Source of the DNA: Longimicrobiales bacterium
GTDB lineage: Bacteria > Gemmatimonadota > Gemmatimonadetes > Longimicrobiales > Gaopeijiaceae
Direction of reading: 5' to 3'
Length of the DNA: 64,000 nt
NCBI GenBank assembly: GCA_965203485.1
Contig: OZ241892.1
Span: 2,944,001-3,008,000 of the forward strand
Of the stretch, positions 9,001 to 24,000 are shown in pieces. The number at the start of each line of letters is the position of its first letter. The stretch's first letter is position 1. Position numbers: made by a program.

Positions 9001-12000
9001 CCGTCAGCGGCTGGACGTTGCTGGCGGGAATCACGAAGTCTCCTTCCTGGTCTTTTTCGTAGATGCAGGCGGAGCCGATTATCACGCCCTTGAACTCGCG
9101 TCCTAGGCCGTGGAGCGACAGCAGGATCTCCAAATGCGTCGTGGTCTTCATGACGAGACGGGCCCAGACGTGATGGGACGTGCGATTGGCGAAGTATCCT
9201 AGCCTCTTCGCTGTCTCTACGATCTGATACCGGAACCAGTGCGACCTCTCGTCGCCGGCCTCGTTGTGGTTGGTGTAGAACTTGAACGAGCGGTGCGGCG
9301 GCGCCAGCGGACCTATCTTCGAGTCGAGTGTCCGGGCGACGGCTTCCAGCTTGCCGATCGCCGTCCCTTGCAGCGATTTGCTCATGACCTTGGCTTGGTC
9401 CCATTCGCTCTCGAGCGCCCGTCGTCGTGTCGTCAGGTCCTCGCGCATGGCGCCAATGATGGACTCCCTCCTCCGCACGCTCCTCGTCGTTTGACCCGCG
9501 ACGCCGATCGCTTCGACGCACGCCTGCTTCTCGATGCGGGCGAACAGCTCGACGAGCGGGGCAAGTTCTCCCTTGTCGGCGGCCCGCAGTGCGCTGATGT
9601 AGACGTCCCGTTGGGCGTTGGTGACCAGAAGAGGGAAGCCTTCGGCCTTCAGCAGCACGAGCGTCGCCAGCGCGCGGGCCACCCTGCCGTTTCCGTCCTG
9701 AAACGGGTGAATCTGCGTGAATCTGTGGTGAAGCCACGCGGCCAGGACTTCCGGAGCGACGGCGTCGGCTTCATGGCGGCGGTGCATTTCTATCAGCCGG
9801 TCCATTTCGGAGGCGACTTGTTCCGGCGGACAGTACTCGTGAATCCTTCCGTCCGCTTCCCGGGGGTTGTTGGGCCGCCGCTTGTAGTCGCCTCTCCGCA
9901 ACCGGATCTTGACTCGCCTGCCCAGCGAATCGACCCCATCGGCGTGGCTCTGATTCGCGGTGAGAACCGAGTGCAGCTCCTTGACGTACGACGTGCCTAG
10001 TTCCCGGCGCGCTGCCACGAAGTCGAACAAACCCTGCAGGGCGTCGGCGTGGTCGCGGATCATTCGCATCACGTGCTCCGAATCGCCGTTCGTGGACCCG
10101 TGGGGGACGAGGCTCGCATCCAAGCCGCGTTCCACCAGCAACTCCGTTATGCCTTGGTCCATCGTGTACAGACGTTCTATCAGCCCCGTTTCGATCGCCC
10201 AGCGGCGCGCCAAGCGCTTTCTGAAGTCCTTGACCGCGGCGTCGGCCTCGAGGGCGGCCCTCTGTTCCCGCCAGACGTCGCGCAAGGCCGTTAGGTCTCC
10301 CTGGGCCAGCCCGCTGTGGTCGGCGGGCAGGTCCGCGACCGGACTCCAGCGATGGGCGAACTCGGGTTGCGGCATTAGGTTGCGTTCCGTGACGACATTT
10401 CGTCTGCATGCACACCGAAAGGTAGTGCGTCCTTCCCCCGTGCCCACGGCGACGAAGTGACCAAAGGCGACGAGCCGCGAGAGCCGAGCGCGGACAAGGA
10501 CCGCCCCGCGACGCTCGAAGCCGTGCGCATCGCGCCGCCGCCCCAAGCCGAAGCACGCGCGTTTCCCTTCGACGTTCCCGCGCTCCAAGGACTCCGGGAG
10601 CTCGAGCTCGGCGCACAGGTCACCGTCTTCGTCGGCGAAAACGGGTCGGGAAAGTCCACCCTGCTCGAAGCGCTCGCTCTCGCGGTCAGCCTTCCCACGG
10701 TTGGCAGCGCCGAAGCGGGCAAGGACAGCTCGTTGATGCTCCAGCGGCGGCTGGCCGACACGCTCACGACGGTATGGCGGCGGCGCACGCGCCGGGGATT
10801 CTTCTTGCGGGCCGAGGACTTCTTCGGATTTGCCCGGCGGCTGCGGACGGTACGCGCCGAAATGGAAGCCAGGATCAAGGAGGTCGAGCGCGACTACGAG
10901 GGCCGCTCCGAGCTGGCCAAGCGCCTCGCGATGGGACCGGCGGCGGCTTCGCTCGCGGCCATGGAGCACAGCTACGGCGAGGACCTCGACGCCAACTCCC
11001 ACGGCGAGAGCTTTCTGCGGCTCTTTCGCGCGCGCTTCGTGCCGAACGGCCTCTACTTGCTGGACGAACCGGAGGCCGCGCTTTCGCCGCAAAGCCAGTT
11101 GGGCTTCGTGTCGATGATGAGCGACATGGCAGCCCAAGGGGGACAGTTCGTGATCGCCACGCACTCCCCCATCCTGATGGCGCTGCCGGGGGCGGTCGTC
11201 TACGGCTTCGACTCGTCTCCGCTGGCGAGAGTGGCGTACGAGCAACTGGAGTCGGTGCAGCTGATGAAGGGCTTCCTGCAAGCGCCGGAGCGGTACCTGC
11301 GGAGGATCTGGCAGACCGGGGAAGCTTGACTGCCCGACGAGCGGCGCAACGGCCGACCGCGCGGCCGTCGAGCAAGCTCAGTTGCCGAACCCCTGCCTCC
11401 ACATATGCCCCTGCAACCGCTGCTTCGCATAGCCGGCCAGCGGCTCCAGCAGATCGGTCGCCAAGGCGGTCGCCGATGCCTCGCCTCCCAGGGGATTCAG
11501 GTCGTCCAAGAAGAACGCGGCGGCAAAGCCCAGCGTCGTCCCGCCGACTTCCGTTCCGCCGTCGTCCAAGAGGTGGACCGGGGGAACTCCCAGCACGCCC
11601 GCGCGCAGGCCGGGCGCGGTGGGGCAGGCCGATATCCACGCGCCGTGGCGGCGGGATGCCGACCGGCCGGCCTCCGGGGGAACGACCAGCACGCCCAGGA
11701 CCAGCGCCGATCCCTCGCGGACAACGGGACCCGCGCGCAACGGCACGGACACGGCGGGCGTGCCCGTCTTGGCGAACACGAAAACCTCGTAGTCCTCGGC
11801 GCCGGGAACGGACCGGACCGCCGACTCGAACCGGCGGACGGCCGACGCCAGACGCGCCGCGGTGCCGCCGGGGCGGGCGACCAGCTCCATGGCGTGCAGC
11901 ACGCGCCGCCGCGCACCAGGATGAAGGACGTCCTCCGGCAAGGGCTCGGTCGCGCCGCCGCGGCGCGGCCCGCCGGGACTGGTCACCAAGCGGCCCCGCA

Positions 12001-21000: not shown

Positions 21001-24000
21001 CCCAAGCCTTGCTCGTCCGGACCGGCGTCCGCGGCCTCGGAAGCGACCACGCCGAGCCAAGCACGTTCCAACAGAGGCCGCCATGCGGAAGACGCGCGCT
21101 CGGCCAAGCCCAGGAACGCCGCGACAAGTTCGCTGGCCAGACCGGGGGCGATCGGATCCTGCACGCGCGCGACGTCCACCATTTCGGGGACTTCGGCTTC
21201 TCGGCCAGCAACCCGGAGAAGCGCGACGAGCATGCTCGCCAGCTCCGCGACCACCGCCTCGCCGTCCAGTTCCCGCGTTCGCCGGACAGCCCTCCCGAGT
21301 TCGCCCACGTCCGCCCCCGCCTGCACCAGAGCCCGCAGTCCCTCGACCAGCAATGCGAGTCCGTGGCCACGGTGCTCGGCGCCCGTGCCCGCCACCGCCG
21401 CCAGTCGGCCCGCCTCGCGCCCGGCGACCCAGCCGCAGCTTCCCCGGGCCAAACCGTCGAAGAAGCGAGGATTCGCTCCCAGCATGGCGTTGCCGGAGAC
21501 GGCCTTCGCCCACTCCGGCCACTGGCCCGCCGGCCGCGCGGCCAAGTCCGCAGCCGCCAGTCGGCCGAGTCCGCGCCACCGCTTCGCACCAGCGGCCTCC
21601 ATGCGCGCGCGCGCGAAGATGTCGACCCGTCCGGGGCGGGACGGTTCCCACTGGACGAAGTAGGGAAGGCACTCGGGCCGGAAGAGGGACATGCTCCGCA
21701 GGTCGATTCTCGCGCTGACGCGGGCATGGTCCGCCGGCATCTCGAGTACGAGCGTCGCCCAGCGCCTAACGGGATCCAGCTCTGTCGCCGGAGCCTCGCG
21801 GACGGCGGAATCGGCGGCCCTGCCGGGCTCGATGCGGATGCCGGAGTCGGTGGCCTTGCCGACGTTGGCTCCCTTGCGGGAGTCGGCGGCCAACGGAACG
21901 AGGCAGGGTGTCGGACGTCGCCCGCGGACGTCGAGCATCGAATAGAAGACCCGGGCGCGGTCGGCCAAAGGCAGGGACAGCCAAGCCAGCCGCAGGAGCG
22001 CGTCGGCGTCGGGCGCGTCGGCCGTCGGCGACAACGGGCCAACCGGGATGACTCCGGCCGCCTTGGCCGCGCGGCTGTCCGCGTCCTCGCGCGGCATGTC
22101 GCCGCGACGCCGGCCAAGCACGTCGCCCATCGCCCGGTACACGGCGCACAGCGCTTCCTTCGCGGCCCGAGTCCCCGCCCCGGCAACCGCGGCCCGCAAC
22201 CGGTCCAGTTCGCAAAGCCGCGCTCGCCGGAACCGCTCCGTGCCGTGGGGGCGCTCCGGCGGCGGCAGCGGCGACGGCTCCACCGGCGCGGAGCCGCGGA
22301 GTTCGGCGAACCAAGCCGCCTCGGATGCGATCGGAAGCGCCGAGAGGTCCATGTGCAGGCCCTGCGGGAATCCGTCGATCTCTCGGAAGAGCCCCTCGTC
22401 GAACAGTAGCGTGTGCGTTGCGATGCGAGCCCGCCGCGCGCGCGGCTCGCCGGAACGCGGGCGCACGACTCCCGACAAGCAAAACCCGAGTCGGCCGTCC
22501 AATGGAAGGAACGATTCCGGCAGTCCGAATGTCCCGTGAACGGGGTCGTTCACCGCCGGACGGACGCCGCCGCCGTGGACCAGGACGGGCGGGTCGGCGG
22601 AGTCGGCCAGTTCGGTTCCCCAGGGGACGCGTTCCTCCAATCGCCTCGCTCGAGTGCGATCCAGGCCCTCGGTCCAGCCGTAGGTCTCCCATGCCAAGTT
22701 GTACGGAGACGCGTTGCTCGCGAACAGGTGGCGGTCAAGGCGGCGATGCGACGACGGGCGGCCGTCCGCATCCGGGCGATCGGCCGTCAAGGGACAGCTT
22801 CCGCGGAGATTTCGAGGTCCAAGATGTCCAGGTCGATGTCCGGTGTCGTGTCCGTCGGCGCGTCCGTCGGCGTCCCGTCGGACTGGGCGTCCAGCGCGTC
22901 TCCGTTGCGCCTCGGGGGCCGGGCCGTCGTGTCCGAACGGGTCAACGTGTCCTCCGGCCGGGCCGTAGTGTCCGCCGGAACGCCCGGCACGTTGCCCGGA
23001 CCGGCCGCGTCAAGCCACGGATCCACCAAGTCTCTGCCGACCCAGCCCACGCCCAGAAGCGCCACTGCAAGCAGGCTCCACGCCAAGTGGCGGCCACCCA
23101 GGCCATGCCGTTCCCGCTTGTCCGCGGGCTCGCCGGCGGCCTTCGGGCCAGTGCGCGGCGGATCGTCCTCTCTCCCGGGCACGACCGACGCCACGGACGC
23201 GACCACTCCGGCCGTCCTCTCCGTCTCTTCTCTAACGACTCGCCGCACCGATGCCATCCAGGCGTCCCCGGAAGCCGCGCTCGCTCCCTCCTCGCGAACG
23301 ACTCGCCGCACGATCGCTTCCAAGTCGACCGCTGGCGGGACTGCCGTTCCAATCGCTTCGGCAACGGCTCGTCCGGCTTCTTCCCGGACCGTGTCCAACG
23401 CCCTGCGCAACAGCTCGGTCAGTTGCCGCTCGCGTTCGTACATTTCCTGCTCATGATTCCGCTCGGACTTGCTCACGGATCAAGTCGCTCGGGCGAGAGG
23501 ACGAAGGAAAAAGACCATCCCTCGGACAACAGGGCATCCAAATCCGCAACGCCTAGTTGCTCGCGGAGCGCGGCGCGGGCCGACAGGTTGTTTTCCAAGT
23601 GGTAGAGGCGCAACACGGCGCGGGCGGTCATCGTCCAAGGCACAGCGATCGTCGTTGTGTCCCTGCCGGCCAGGAATTCGGCGGTCAAGCGGGATGCGTC
23701 GTCGAACGAGACCTGAGATCCGACTGGGCTGGTCTCGGTCGTGACCATGGCAAGCCGACGCAACCTCGGACCCGTTGCGGTGCCCACGAAGAACAGACAC
23801 GCAACGATGGCCGCCACAACAATGGCCGCCGCCAAGACACGACATAGCGCGATCAACCGCTCGGACTTGTTCATTACGTCCTTCGTTCACGGCTCCGTCG
23901 TGCGATTTGCCCGACAATGTAACGTCTGGCCGCGACGAAGGGCCTGGCGCGCATCCTTGGCGCATCCCCACGCCGGACCTACGGCTTGACGCCCTGCTGG

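Follow-up and report, generated by a model that had tools for sequence, protein, structure and literature searches.

A conserved operon joins remote relatives of SEDS and penicillin-binding proteins to a Ras-like GTPase in a Longimicrobiales bacterium

The window analysed here, a stretch of 64,000 nucleotides from contig OZ241892.1 of a Longimicrobiales bacterium, carries a tight seven-gene operon on its minus strand (11378-23874; all features given below lie on this strand), with g02277 as the first gene and g02271 as the last. Neighbouring genes overlap by 4 nt at five junctions and are separated by a 34-nt gap at one, and both the genes and their coordinates are borne out as the survey's finding had described them. 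Its further claim that the encoded proteins belong to no known family holds as well: at E <= 1, none of them reaches a curated Pfam or NCBIfam cut-off and PADLOC returns no match, the family scans yielding only weak P-loop hints for g02274. The operon carries no genes for murein precursors, flippases or hydrolases. The same genome also encodes canonical FtsW/FtsI and RodA/PBP2, in agreement with the accessory status previously proposed for the operon beside these housekeeping pairs.

The protein encoded by g02271 (11378-14002; 874 aa) consists of an N-terminal membrane anchor, its single transmembrane segment according to topology prediction, followed by a family-specific outer domain of ~270 aa and a divergent penicillin-binding transpeptidase domain. 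Homologues numbering 48 were collected, and an alignment of 26 keeps eleven cysteines and all three active-site motifs invariant. The SxxK motif, S391-A-L-K394 (12821..12832), aligns with GSTxKPF of the bPBPs; the SxN motif, S451-C-N453 (12644..12652), was located by homologue alignment and comparison with the bPBP profile, and the KTG motif, K745-T-G747 (11762..11770), by homologue alignment. We examined the identity of g02271 by profile comparison, in which it matches 30 Gemmatimonadota bPBPs with a probability of 97.3% (hhalign, E 2.1e-11), and class-B PBPs make up 22 of its 24 weak PDB profile matches. Judged from its sequence, g02271 is a genuine, if remote, penicillin-binding transpeptidase. 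In contrast to canonical bPBPs, the spacing between SxN and KTG amounts to ~290 residues and the sequence gives no sign of a pedestal domain. The earlier description as a very divergent class-B PBP thus stands for the PBP-like transpeptidase, whereas 'class B' is unproven because of the undetectable pedestal.

Upstream of it lies g02272 (13999-17547), a polytopic protein of 1182 aa with an N-terminal helical hairpin, a probably periplasmic domain of ~460 aa and ~13 helices that include a SEDS-like (GT-C_B) core (residues 583-1142; 14122..15801), as delimited by structural alignment and a merged profile. Topology prediction gives about 15 hydrophobic helices, replacing the earlier count of 11 hydrophobic segments; 57 homologues were collected. 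An independent AF2 model of residues 560-1182 (pLDDT 71.8, pTM 0.77) again ranks FtsW/RodA first, confirming the fold previously assigned to the C-terminal half. Foldseek places FtsW at the top (8p1u_A, E 1.5e-2, TM 0.47 by target), and in a VIA-align search of 48,161 chains the three RodA/FtsW (SEDS) representatives occupy ranks 1-3 (8bh1_A at Z 14.8, 6pl5_A at 14.1, 8tj3_B at 13.0), with the next match at 9.2. At Z 14.8, positions 24..583 of the model align with FtsW 23..384; WaaL aligns over 301 residues at Z 8.8.

The weak profile match of the g02272 family to the genome's own RodA could be reproduced by direct comparison (probability 19%, E 1.2e-3). The profile of a fused acidobacterial family, described below, matches SEDS at 87% (E 3.8e-6, 286 columns) and g02272 at 86% (E 5.5e-6), and a merged superfamily profile of 84 sequences matches SEDS at 95.7% (E 9e-9, 222 columns), where reversed-sequence decoys yield 0.1-0.9% (0.2% for the superfamily profile itself). 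A HMMER profile of the g02272 family found no SEDS chain in PDB. In its C-terminal part, g02272 is a distant relative of SEDS.

The presence of the SEDS catalytic Asp (HTD), a check left open by the survey, is answered by the motif T-R-E1001-H1002-V (14539..14553), in which E1001 occupies its position: the acid is retained, as Glu. Glu and His occur together at this site in 37/37 family members, and the position is acidic in all 84 superfamily rows (57 E, 27 D). Families of the CAZy clan GT-C1 are described as using Asp or Glu at the catalytic place (PMC10920833). ISDFGI (14947..14964) is the equivalent of the SEDS ECL3 motif QPDLG, and its Asp and Gly (D864, G866) are kept in 83/83 superfamily rows. 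The equivalent of the ECL5 motif TGxPLPFxSYGGS is FTGKNVYLLGLDSL (14200..14241), with TG retained and SYGG replaced by GLDS; ECL4 is likewise retained as GxWxGxGF. The equivalent of FtsW Y242 is Arg, and that of R246 is Leu in the g02272 clade and Arg in 36/83 superfamily rows. Since the E. coli FtsW residues at the compared cavity positions are reported as essential (PMC8765783) and are replaced here, the substrate or chemistry of g02272 may differ. With canonical SEDS proteins, g02272 shares the fold (Z 13-15), the acid at the catalytic position and the ECL3, ECL4 and ECL5 motifs; it departs from them by Glu in place of Asp, the replaced R246, Y242 and SYGG equivalents, five extra helices and the large outer domain.

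The soluble GTPase g02274 (19544-20782; 412 aa) displays a variable N-terminus of ~100 aa and a Ras/Arf/Rag/MglA-like G domain, in which an insert of ~115 aa separates G3 from G4. G1, the G2 Thr, G3 and G4 are invariant in the homologue alignment, which locates the G1/P-loop GLPRHGKS at 20423..20446 and the G4 motif SKAD, an [NT]KxD variant, at 19922..19933; the residue after DxxG is Glu, not Gln. The best 50 structural matches of its AF2 model (pLDDT 82) are all GTPases, with Nog1, RagD, Arf6, Arl13B and MglA at Z 13.6-14.3 (VIA-align, with supporting Foldseek hits) and MglA aligned over 178 of 202 residues at Z 13.6. These observations support a Ras-superfamily G domain in g02274 and uphold its earlier identification as a Ras/Arf-like small GTPase.

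The remaining four proteins offer fewer leads. g02273 (17544-19547; 667 aa) has membrane helices at both termini and a probably periplasmic domain of ~560 aa, which is possibly TPR-like, as hinted at by weak TPR leads only; it is conserved and adjoins g02272 in 11 loci. Comparison of the soluble g02275 (20817-22790; 657 aa), conserved in 9 loci, with PDB, Pfam and Atlas gave no lead. In g02276 (22787-23476; 229 aa), the N-terminal half is charged, a single weak hydrophobic segment lies centrally and the tail is of low complexity; among the genome loci compared, it has homologues only in L007 and L013. The first gene of the operon, g02277 (23473-23874; 133 aa), encodes a protein that is anchored in the membrane by its N-terminus and exposes a small outer domain; it is present in 8 loci (L007-L010 and L012-L015).

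Gene linkage within the module is strict down to 25-40% identity. In 13/13 non-acidobacterial genome loci with upstream DNA, g02272 is the gene immediately upstream of g02271, and all 11 loci that extend 5 kb or more in this direction contain both g02274 and g02273. The superfamily of the membrane protein comprises 456 representative clusters. Among 34 distant metagenome loci, a PBP-like gene follows in 30/30 with at least 0.4 kb downstream, and a GTPase lies upstream in 19 of the 20 whose upstream DNA exceeds 2.5 kb. The module is also found in a gammaproteobacterial Wenzhouxiangella MAG. In Acidobacteriota, both enzymes are fused in one ORF at 14 loci (~1,580-1,820 aa where complete; ~1,750 residues), the C-terminal part of which scores 99.7% (E 1e-25) against the g02271 family and 96% against bPBPs. 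A zinc-ribbon P-loop gene follows the fusion in 13/13 loci with downstream DNA; its product resembles g02274 at the P-loop only (7.7%), which leaves a common origin of the two NTPase partners conjectural. A Pfam scan of diverse representatives gave a match in 0/26, and P0106 has PF00905 at E 0.24 as its only hit. The conserved linkage in distant metagenome loci and the acidobacterial fusions indicate that the module is not confined to Longimicrobiales, and the combination of SEDS-like, PBP-like and Ras-like GTPase proteins recurs across many uncultured bacteria. Strong full-length matches occur in 3/201 sampled genomes of the phylum, the module therefore being dispensable.

We read the module as an accessory, mobile, GTPase-associated wall synthase, undescribed in the literature searched. 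From the survey's interpretation, the PBP-like, SEDS-like and Ras-superfamily trio in one conserved operon is kept, while the restriction to Longimicrobiales and the 'class B' wording are dropped. With moderate confidence, we regard the operon as a self-contained accessory envelope-synthesis machine around a SEDS-PBP-descended pair, probably under GTPase control. The homology and fold of g02271, g02272 and g02274, the conservation of their catalytic or nucleotide-binding motifs and the strict gene linkage, the fusion included, are established by the analyses above; substrate, product, physical contacts and direction of control we infer as follows. The core pair g02272 and g02271 descends from SEDS-PBP peptidoglycan synthases. 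In this reading g02272 would be a lipid-diphosphate-sugar glycosyltransferase of SEDS/GT-C_B fold with Glu1001 as its putative acceptor-activating acid, and g02271 a serine acyl-transferase (transpeptidase) held next to it by its membrane anchor. Acting as a complex on lipid II or on a close, peptide-bearing relative of it, the two would polymerise strands at the periplasmic face and cross-link them there, with peptidoglycan as the presumed product. On the cytoplasmic side, g02274 would switch the synthase, probably setting the timing or place of its activity in concert with the cytoplasmic half of g02276 and with g02275, which is soluble. The bitopic g02273 and g02277 could relay the signal through the membrane, by analogy with FtsA/FtsQLB/FtsN for FtsWI and MreB/MreCD/RodZ for RodA-PBP2.

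The genomic surroundings hint at another role. The operon sits at the margin of an island of low GC that carries mobile and defence-type genes; to its left in the window, where GC is lower, are a UvrD-like helicase with DUF2290, a multiubiquitin/E2/JAB-E1 set, an AAA_15/21 ATPase, an IS4/5 transposase and a Fic protein. In relatives, what follows past g02271 varies and frequently looks defence-like, with UvrD, AAA_15/21 and MZB in L007 and L013, an ISL3 transposase, an Hsp70-like protein and a kinase-AAA protein in L009, Schlafen in L010, PIN in L012 and IS110 in L017 (scanned for its first gene only; no genes were scanned in L008). Together with the patchy spread, including the gammaproteobacterial MAG, this would suit an envelope-directed defence or stress system, in which the GTPase, when phages attack or the envelope is damaged, triggers the pair into remodelling or thickening the wall or into arresting growth, without a morphogenetic role. 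We nevertheless consider this unlikely: much non-defence cargo also sits in islands, within the window the opposite flank of the operon holds the housekeeping genes PSP1 and AccA, no defence or mobile genes showed up in three of the ten flanks examined (L014, L015, L019), and, beside the negative PADLOC result, the operon lacks any nuclease, toxin or sensor of the kind usual in defence systems.

It is also improbable, in our view, that g02272 polymerises or ligates a glycan other than peptidoglycan (GT-C1, Wzy- or WaaL-like), with the PBP-like protein working on that polymer as its peptidase, its esterase or a transferase that anchors it. The Glu followed by an invariant His does resemble BP-Pol/O-antigen-ligase families of GT-C1 (PMC10920833), several FtsW cavity residues are replaced, WaaL is a structural match, and both proteins carry large family-specific outer domains. 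However, the SEDS chains score well above WaaL, the profile matches point to SEDS, the obligate partner still has every acyl-serine transferase motif of the D,D-transpeptidases, and sugar-nucleotide, Wzx and Wzz genes are absent from the operon. The altered SEDS cavity and the outer domains, along with the typical use of GTPases as signalling switches, could likewise point at a synthase-dead sensor, in which the PBP-like protein binds muropeptides or beta-lactams (compare BlaR1 and PASTA kinases), g02272 serves as scaffold and the GTPase provides the output in the cytoplasm. This appears highly doubtful, as purifying selection keeps the acid, the ECL3 Asp-x-Gly and all three PBP motifs, which is more than binding alone is expected to need, and the operon holds no transcription factor or other output domain.

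CAZy clan GT-C1 includes SEDS (GT119), O-antigen ligase (GT121) and inverting Wzy-type polymerases, which like g02272 display a lipid-PP-sugar-using GT-C_B fold and a long C-terminal outer loop with a conserved Asp, Glu or His (PMC10920833). Within this clan, g02272 is much nearer to SEDS than to WaaL, a secondary structural match. It is tied to a PBP-like partner, whereas to our knowledge no Wzy or WaaL family has one. RodA-PBP2, FtsW-FtsI and SpoVE-SpoVD, like the operon, place a polytopic GT-C_B glycosyltransferase beside a membrane-anchored SxxK/SxN/KTG transpeptidase. In contrast to these canonical pairs, g02272 and g02271 are not recognised by Pfam or NCBIfam, are co-operonic with a GTPase and four other proteins, and belong to an accessory, patchy operon that lies away from the dcw and mrd clusters.

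The MglA/MglB polarity GTPase module is reported to guide the Rod complex when Myxococcus xanthus spores germinate (bioRxiv 10.1101/818641; PMC8144978), so that there, as proposed here, a Ras-like GTPase influences the place of SEDS-based wall synthesis. The system on which MglA acts, the housekeeping elongasome, is encoded apart from it, whereas g02274 is a dedicated GTPase within the operon, has double the size and is devoid of the catalytic Gln, with no MglB/Roadblock partner identified. Published SEDS-pedestal-transpeptidase fusions (PMC12516126) resemble the acidobacterial relatives in forming one polypeptide. Canonical natural fusions were found there via InterPro/Pfam domains, which the proteins described here lack, and the main text of that paper makes no mention of GTPases or Gemmatimonadota. 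The acidobacterial single-protein enzyme pair with its zinc-ribbon P-loop gene is newly found here.

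The conserved operon in the window encodes a Ras-type GTPase together with a transpeptidase derived from PBPs and a glycosyltransferase derived from SEDS proteins. On the minus strand it runs from g02277 (23473-23874, 133 aa, predicted from its topology to be anchored at the N-terminus) through g02276 (22787-23476, 229 aa), g02275 (20817-22790, 657 aa, predicted soluble), g02274 (19544-20782, 412 aa, predicted soluble), g02273 (17544-19547, 667 aa, with a predicted helix at either end of a ~560-residue domain) and g02272 (13999-17547, 1182 aa) to g02271 (11378-14002, 874 aa). 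Neighbouring genes overlap by 4 nt at five junctions, including the one where the 3' end of g02272 meets the PBP-like gene g02271, and g02275 and g02274 are separated by 34 nt. Pfam and NCBIfam, searched at E ≤ 1, give no match above a curated cut-off for any of the seven proteins, and only weak P-loop hints for g02274; PADLOC-DB 2.0 (2023 library) returns 0 matches at E ≤ 1 for all seven. The survey's finding of a tightly spaced operon at 11378-23874 outside the families of these libraries is thereby borne out. Plus-strand ORFs called over the g02271 region on the basis of GC3 were rejected, as homology supports the minus-strand gene. A promoter scan gave 0 promoter-like sites, and terminator-like sites were fewer than in shuffled sequence. 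A look-up of sequencing runs listed four DNA entries from a single study and none for RNA.

The strongest new evidence for a module comes from gene linkage. Scanning genome contigs with the g02271 family returned 28 loci, 14 acidobacterial and 14 non-acidobacterial, one of the latter from a Wenzhouxiangella (Gammaproteobacteria) MAG. At the non-acidobacterial loci, g02272 lies directly upstream of g02271 in 13 of the 13 with upstream DNA; all 11 genome loci whose upstream DNA spans 5 kb or more also encode g02274 and g02273, accompanied by g02275 in 9 and g02277 in 8. A distant subgroup of g02272 relatives (34 metagenome loci, 25-40% identity to the query, GC 0.42-0.78) retains the signature SD[FL]G, REH and FTGKNxYLLGLDS. 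There, a g02271-like gene comes next on the same strand at 30/30 loci that extend 0.4 kb or more downstream, and 19 of the 20 loci with more than 2.5 kb of upstream DNA encode a g02274-like GTPase there, at a distance of 1-3.5 kb, the exception being locus L127. With the g02272 family as profile, an exhaustive search collected 456 representative clusters at E ≤ 1e-3, 127 of them at E ≤ 1e-30, and 0 of 26 diverse superfamily representatives matched Pfam (E ≤ 0.01). The operon is part of a large unannotated superfamily.

The 14 acidobacterial loci (Acidobacteriota/Thermoanaerobaculia) carry one ORF, about 1,580-1,820 residues long in complete copies. In profile comparisons, the C-terminal part of this ORF scores 99.7% (E 1e-25) against the g02271 family and 96% against class-B PBPs (bPBPs); the ORF is a natural fusion of both enzymes. 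Where DNA downstream of the fusion is available, the following gene codes in 13 of 13 acidobacterial loci for a zinc-ribbon protein that has a GxxxxGKT P-loop and resembles g02274 at the P-loop only (7.7%). Around the fusions, no match was found to profiles of g02273, g02274 and g02275 or to g02276 and g02277, each searched as a single sequence. Beside the fusion (L024:11470-14122 and the same place in L021-L034) sits a conserved protein of 435 aa that bears a P-loop and two CxxC pairs; in L024, a 450-aa protein whose C-terminal half holds a membrane helix is found there as well. Neither belongs to a Pfam family.

A word-indexed search yielded 48 homologues of g02271, 0 of them with a Pfam domain on record; the named sources are Gemmatimonadota or Longimicrobiales MAGs, and the majority bear no source name. 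The motifs S391-x-x-K394, S451-C-N453 and K745-T-G747 are invariant in 26/26 aligned sequences, as are eleven cysteines. A single hydrophobic segment at residues 6-28 forms the predicted N-terminal membrane anchor, the remainder being soluble. The Pfam HMM PF00905 does not match g02271. An hhalign comparison with a profile of 30 Gemmatimonadota bPBPs, assembled for this analysis, reached 97.3% (E 2.1e-11, 135 columns), with an alignment spanning the LTLDxxL junction, SxxK and SxN. Class-B PBPs make up 22 of the 24 rows when the family profile is searched against the PDB, with weak scores (E 0.06-1.6) and with GSAxKPF of the family aligned onto SxxK; the single-sequence PDB search gave chance rows only. 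Taken together, motifs and profiles argue for a transpeptidase-fold PBP with intact active-site motifs.

Upstream of SxxK, only the LTLDxxL junction aligns between g02271 and bPBPs. Pfam detects no dimerisation/pedestal domain (PF03717, PBP_dimer) in g02271, residues 1-305 have no similarity to the N-terminal (pedestal) profile of bPBPs (0.2-0.4%), and comparison of the N-domain and the insert with bPBPs gave nothing (0.2-2.1%). Of the earlier description as a divergent class-B PBP, the transpeptidase homology with its invariant SxxK, SxN and KTG motifs is supported; the 'class B' label, with no pedestal similarity detected, stays tentative.

For g02272, with 57 homologues, the SEDS-like core was modelled with AF2 over residues 560-1182 from 37 sequences, at medium confidence (pLDDT 71.8, pTM 0.77). 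Foldseek lists FtsW first (8p1u_A, E 1.5e-2, TM 0.47 by target), with a TM of 0.49 for RodA 8tj3_B and 0.28 for WaaL. In a Foldseek-independent comparison with 48,161 chains (VIA-align), the three SEDS representatives occupy ranks 1-3, namely 8bh1_A (Z 14.8, 297/348 residues aligned, rmsd 4.9), 6pl5_A (Z 14.1) and 8tj3_B (Z 13.0), followed at rank 4 by an unrelated helical repeat (Z 9.2), with WaaL at Z 8.8; chance alone can lift helical models to Z 13-14, and the weight therefore lies on the Z gap and the near-complete coverage. The model displays the ten-helix GT-C_B fold of the RodA/FtsW type.

No Pfam or NCBIfam HMM, PF01098 included, matches g02272 at E ≤ 1. PF01098 recovers the genome's own FtsW and RodA, and PF00905 recovers three PBPs in the genome, two of which adjoin the FtsW/RodA SEDS genes; the ordinary wall synthases are encoded elsewhere in the genome. 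Searched against the PDB, the g02272 family profile finds no SEDS chain and one chance row (E 3.3). Direct comparison with a SEDS profile of 51 RodA/FtsW proteins from Gemmatimonadota gives 19% (E 1.2e-3, 60 columns), reproducing the weak match to RodA that had been reported before. The acidobacterial fused family bridges the two profiles: its membrane domain matches SEDS at 87.3% (E 3.8e-6, 286 columns, RodA 48-394) and g02272 at 85.7% (E 5.5e-6, 242 columns). A merged profile of 84 superfamily sequences, combining the g02272 family, the distant subgroup and the fusions, reaches 95.7% against the 51 SEDS proteins (E 9e-9, 222 columns), with reversed-sequence decoys at 0.1-0.9%. Between the N-terminal domains of g02272 and the fused proteins there is no detectable relation (0.6%).

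A positive-inside count suggests the following topology for g02272. A helical hairpin at residues 1-46 would be followed by a ~460-residue domain, which should be periplasmic, and then by ~13 helices. The loop at 698-751, with 13 Lys+Arg and 0 acidic residues, should be cytoplasmic, and the 89-residue loop at 923-1011, which bears the catalytic motifs, should face out as it does in SEDS.

In comparing active sites, we take RodA R257 to be the equivalent of FtsW R246, and the placement of E. coli FtsW numbers on the SEDS motifs is in part an assumption. The position of the SEDS catalytic Asp (HTD), a check the survey had left open, is occupied by Glu1001 in g02272, and the acid is retained as Glu in 37/37 family members and as an acidic residue in 84/84 superfamily sequences (57 Glu, 27 Asp). 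The following residue, His1002, is invariant in the family. The SEDS Asp itself is absent, its replacement by Glu is conservative, and with Glu1001 in its place the function may be kept. Also retained are the ECL3 motif QPDLG as ISD864FG866, with Asp and Gly in 83/83 superfamily rows, the ECL4 motif GxGGxxGxGF as G978-N-W-x-G982-x-G984-F, and the Thr-Gly of ECL5. Among the motifs lost, the invariant Arg of SEDS (R246 equivalent) is Leu in this clade and Arg in 36/83 superfamily rows, the Tyr preceding it (Y242 equivalent) is Arg, the ECL3 Pro (P196 equivalent) is Ser, and SYGG is GLDS. The essential Asp of E. coli FtsW is D297, located in the long outer loop ECL4, and the cavity residues needed are Y242, R246, P196-x-L-G199 and Y379-G380-G381 (PMC8765783). 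Families of lipid-PP-sugar glycosyltransferases in clan GT-C1 are reported to have Asp or Glu at this catalytic position, and WaaL to have His (PMC10920833). Because of the active-site motifs kept and lost and of this Asp/Glu pattern, we place g02272 in a new family beside SEDS within clan GT-C1, and not in PF01098/GT119. The protein is probably catalytic.

The nucleotide-binding motifs of g02274 are preserved. G113...G118-K119 (G1, of the form GxxxxGK[ST]), T144 (G2), D166-x-x-G169 (G3) and K285/D287 (G4) are invariant in 12 orthologues, all twelve of which retain the switch-I Thr; S284 is nearly invariant among them, with G4 reading SKAD. The G1-G3 positions and K285/D287 are invariant again in 36 sequences. 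The catalytic and nucleotide motifs of the operon are under selection. Against the PDB, the g02274 family profile gives P-loop-level matches only (IF2, Der; E at least 1e-3). An AF2 model of residues 85-412 from the 36 sequences (pLDDT 82, pTM 0.87) matches GBP1 (7e-6) and H-Ras (1.3e-5, TM 0.50 by target) in Foldseek, along with K-Ras, Arl3 and atlastin (E about 1e-5). With VIA-align, the best 50 matches listed are all GTPases or G-domain fusions, among them Nog1 (Z 14.3), RagD (14.1), Arf6 (14.0), Arl13B (13.8) and MglA (13.6); rows within 1 Z count as tied, and g02274 is therefore given no subfamily.

Ras-type small GTPases are of ~20-25 kDa and have a catalytic Gln after DxxG. With its 412 aa, g02274 is extended by ~100 aa at the N-terminus and carries an insert of ~115 aa, and its G3 reads DMAGE, with an invariant Glu where Ras has the catalytic Gln. 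As modelled, g02274 has a G domain of the Ras-superfamily type, and is not 'small'. The earlier designation as a Ras/Arf-like small GTPase is thus supported in its G1-G4 motifs and Ras-like fold, and fails on size and on the catalytic Gln.

For the partner proteins, structural leads are scarce. Complex prediction pairing g02275 and the G domain of g02274 gave a score of 0.01, a value that counts neither for nor against binding. The ESM Atlas offered no usable lead for g02275 and TPR-like leads only for g02273, at 0.84, which is below the trust level. PDB profile searches with g02275 and g02273 gave nothing below E 0.07, the rows for g02273 including weak TPR matches.

SEDS-bPBP pairs form the enzymatic core of bacterial wall synthesis and are major targets of antibiotics; the regulators known for them are the actin-based elongasome and the tubulin-based divisome. 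The pair encoded here would make or modify peptidoglycan. We infer that g02271 and g02272 form a complex, for which the natural fusion argues, and the GTPase g02274 would gate the pair via g02275, g02276, g02273 and g02277. It is conceivable, if somewhat doubtful, that the operon represents a large, cross-phylum and unannotated class of third morphogenetic machines, in which a polymerase of SEDS descent and a transpeptidase of PBP descent are combined with a dedicated cytoplasmic NTPase switch (the Ras-like GTPase here, the zinc-ribbon P-loop protein by the acidobacterial fusion) and with their own bitopic adaptors in a horizontally moving cassette. If so, a recipient would gain conditional building or repair of the wall, or of a wall-like polymer, that depends neither on the tubulin-guided divisome nor on the actin-guided elongasome. 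The natural fusion, the conserved acid E1001, the Asp D864 and the Ser S391 provide experimental handles.

A full-text literature search returned no account of a GTPase gene accompanying a SEDS-like/PBP-like pair. Functionally, the closest precedent is the guidance of the Rod complex by MglA/MglB in Myxococcus spores (bioRxiv 10.1101/818641). A 2025 survey of morphogenetic synthases based on InterPro domains describes canonical SEDS-PBP fusions, its main text, as far as cited here, mentioning neither GTPases nor Gemmatimonadota (PMC12516126); in contrast to those fusions, the proteins described here lack the InterPro domains used there. If such pairs are widespread, invisible to curated HMMs and always linked to a GTPase of their own, domain-based surveys of wall synthases would undercount them, Ras-like switches would govern bacterial envelope synthesis more directly than is known, and soil bacteria would possess a new set of penicillin-binding proteins of unknown drug sensitivity.

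Within the phylum, the g02271 profile has strong full-length matches in 3 of 201 sampled genomes and weak partial matches in five others; the module is accessory. The partial matches (E 4.5e-13 to 4.6e-4, for example G162:C2:805537-806280) sit in open frames of 684-1171 aa, with a canonical PF00905 PBP overlapped in at least one case (G003:C9); the others may be canonical PBPs too, or else form a second family of divergent PBP-like proteins.

The operon borders a lower-GC stretch of the window. On the plus strand, this side carries a UvrD-like helicase followed by a DUF2290 protein (46-2917), a run of three genes for proteins with Multiubiquitin, Prok-E2_E and JAB + ThiF (E1) domains (3351-5916), together a bacterial ubiquitin-like conjugation set such as occurs in defence islands, and an AAA_15/AAA_21 ATPase (6103-7275). 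Between this island and the operon sit, on the minus strand, an IS4/5-family DDE transposase (7250-8071) and the gene for a 504-aa Fic-domain protein (8879-10393), the latter separated from g02271 by about 1 kb without an assigned gene (10394-11377). The far side of the operon is housekeeping in character (cytochrome c, PSP1, AccA). The downstream flanks of relatives (ten loci, 30 of 53 called ORFs scanned) vary between loci and often hold defence-like or mobile genes. The equivalent flank of two of them (L007 and L013) carries UvrD, AAA_15/21 and MZB genes, the UvrD and AAA_15/21 pair being what we take to be Gabija-like. Downstream of the operon in another Longimicrobiales genome (L009:16986-22198), there are a 976-aa Hsp70/MreB-like protein, a protein kinase-AAA+ ATPase fusion and an ISL3 transposase; owing to a stop codon in its reference sequence, L009 was left out of one of the alignments. 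In four genomes of the same family, the 20 kb beyond the PSP1 gene share nothing with the 45-kb operon side of this genome, and no clean empty insertion site could be defined. In this setting, a defence or stress role for the operon is conceivable.

More than half of the window is taken up by a single minus-strand ORF of 12,144 codons (27339-63773), with a GC3 of 0.94 and a strong negative GC skew. Its first and last 2,000 residues contain fn3, cadherin, Cadherin_4, Big_9 and He_PIG domains, and by this domain content it looks like a giant surface adhesin.
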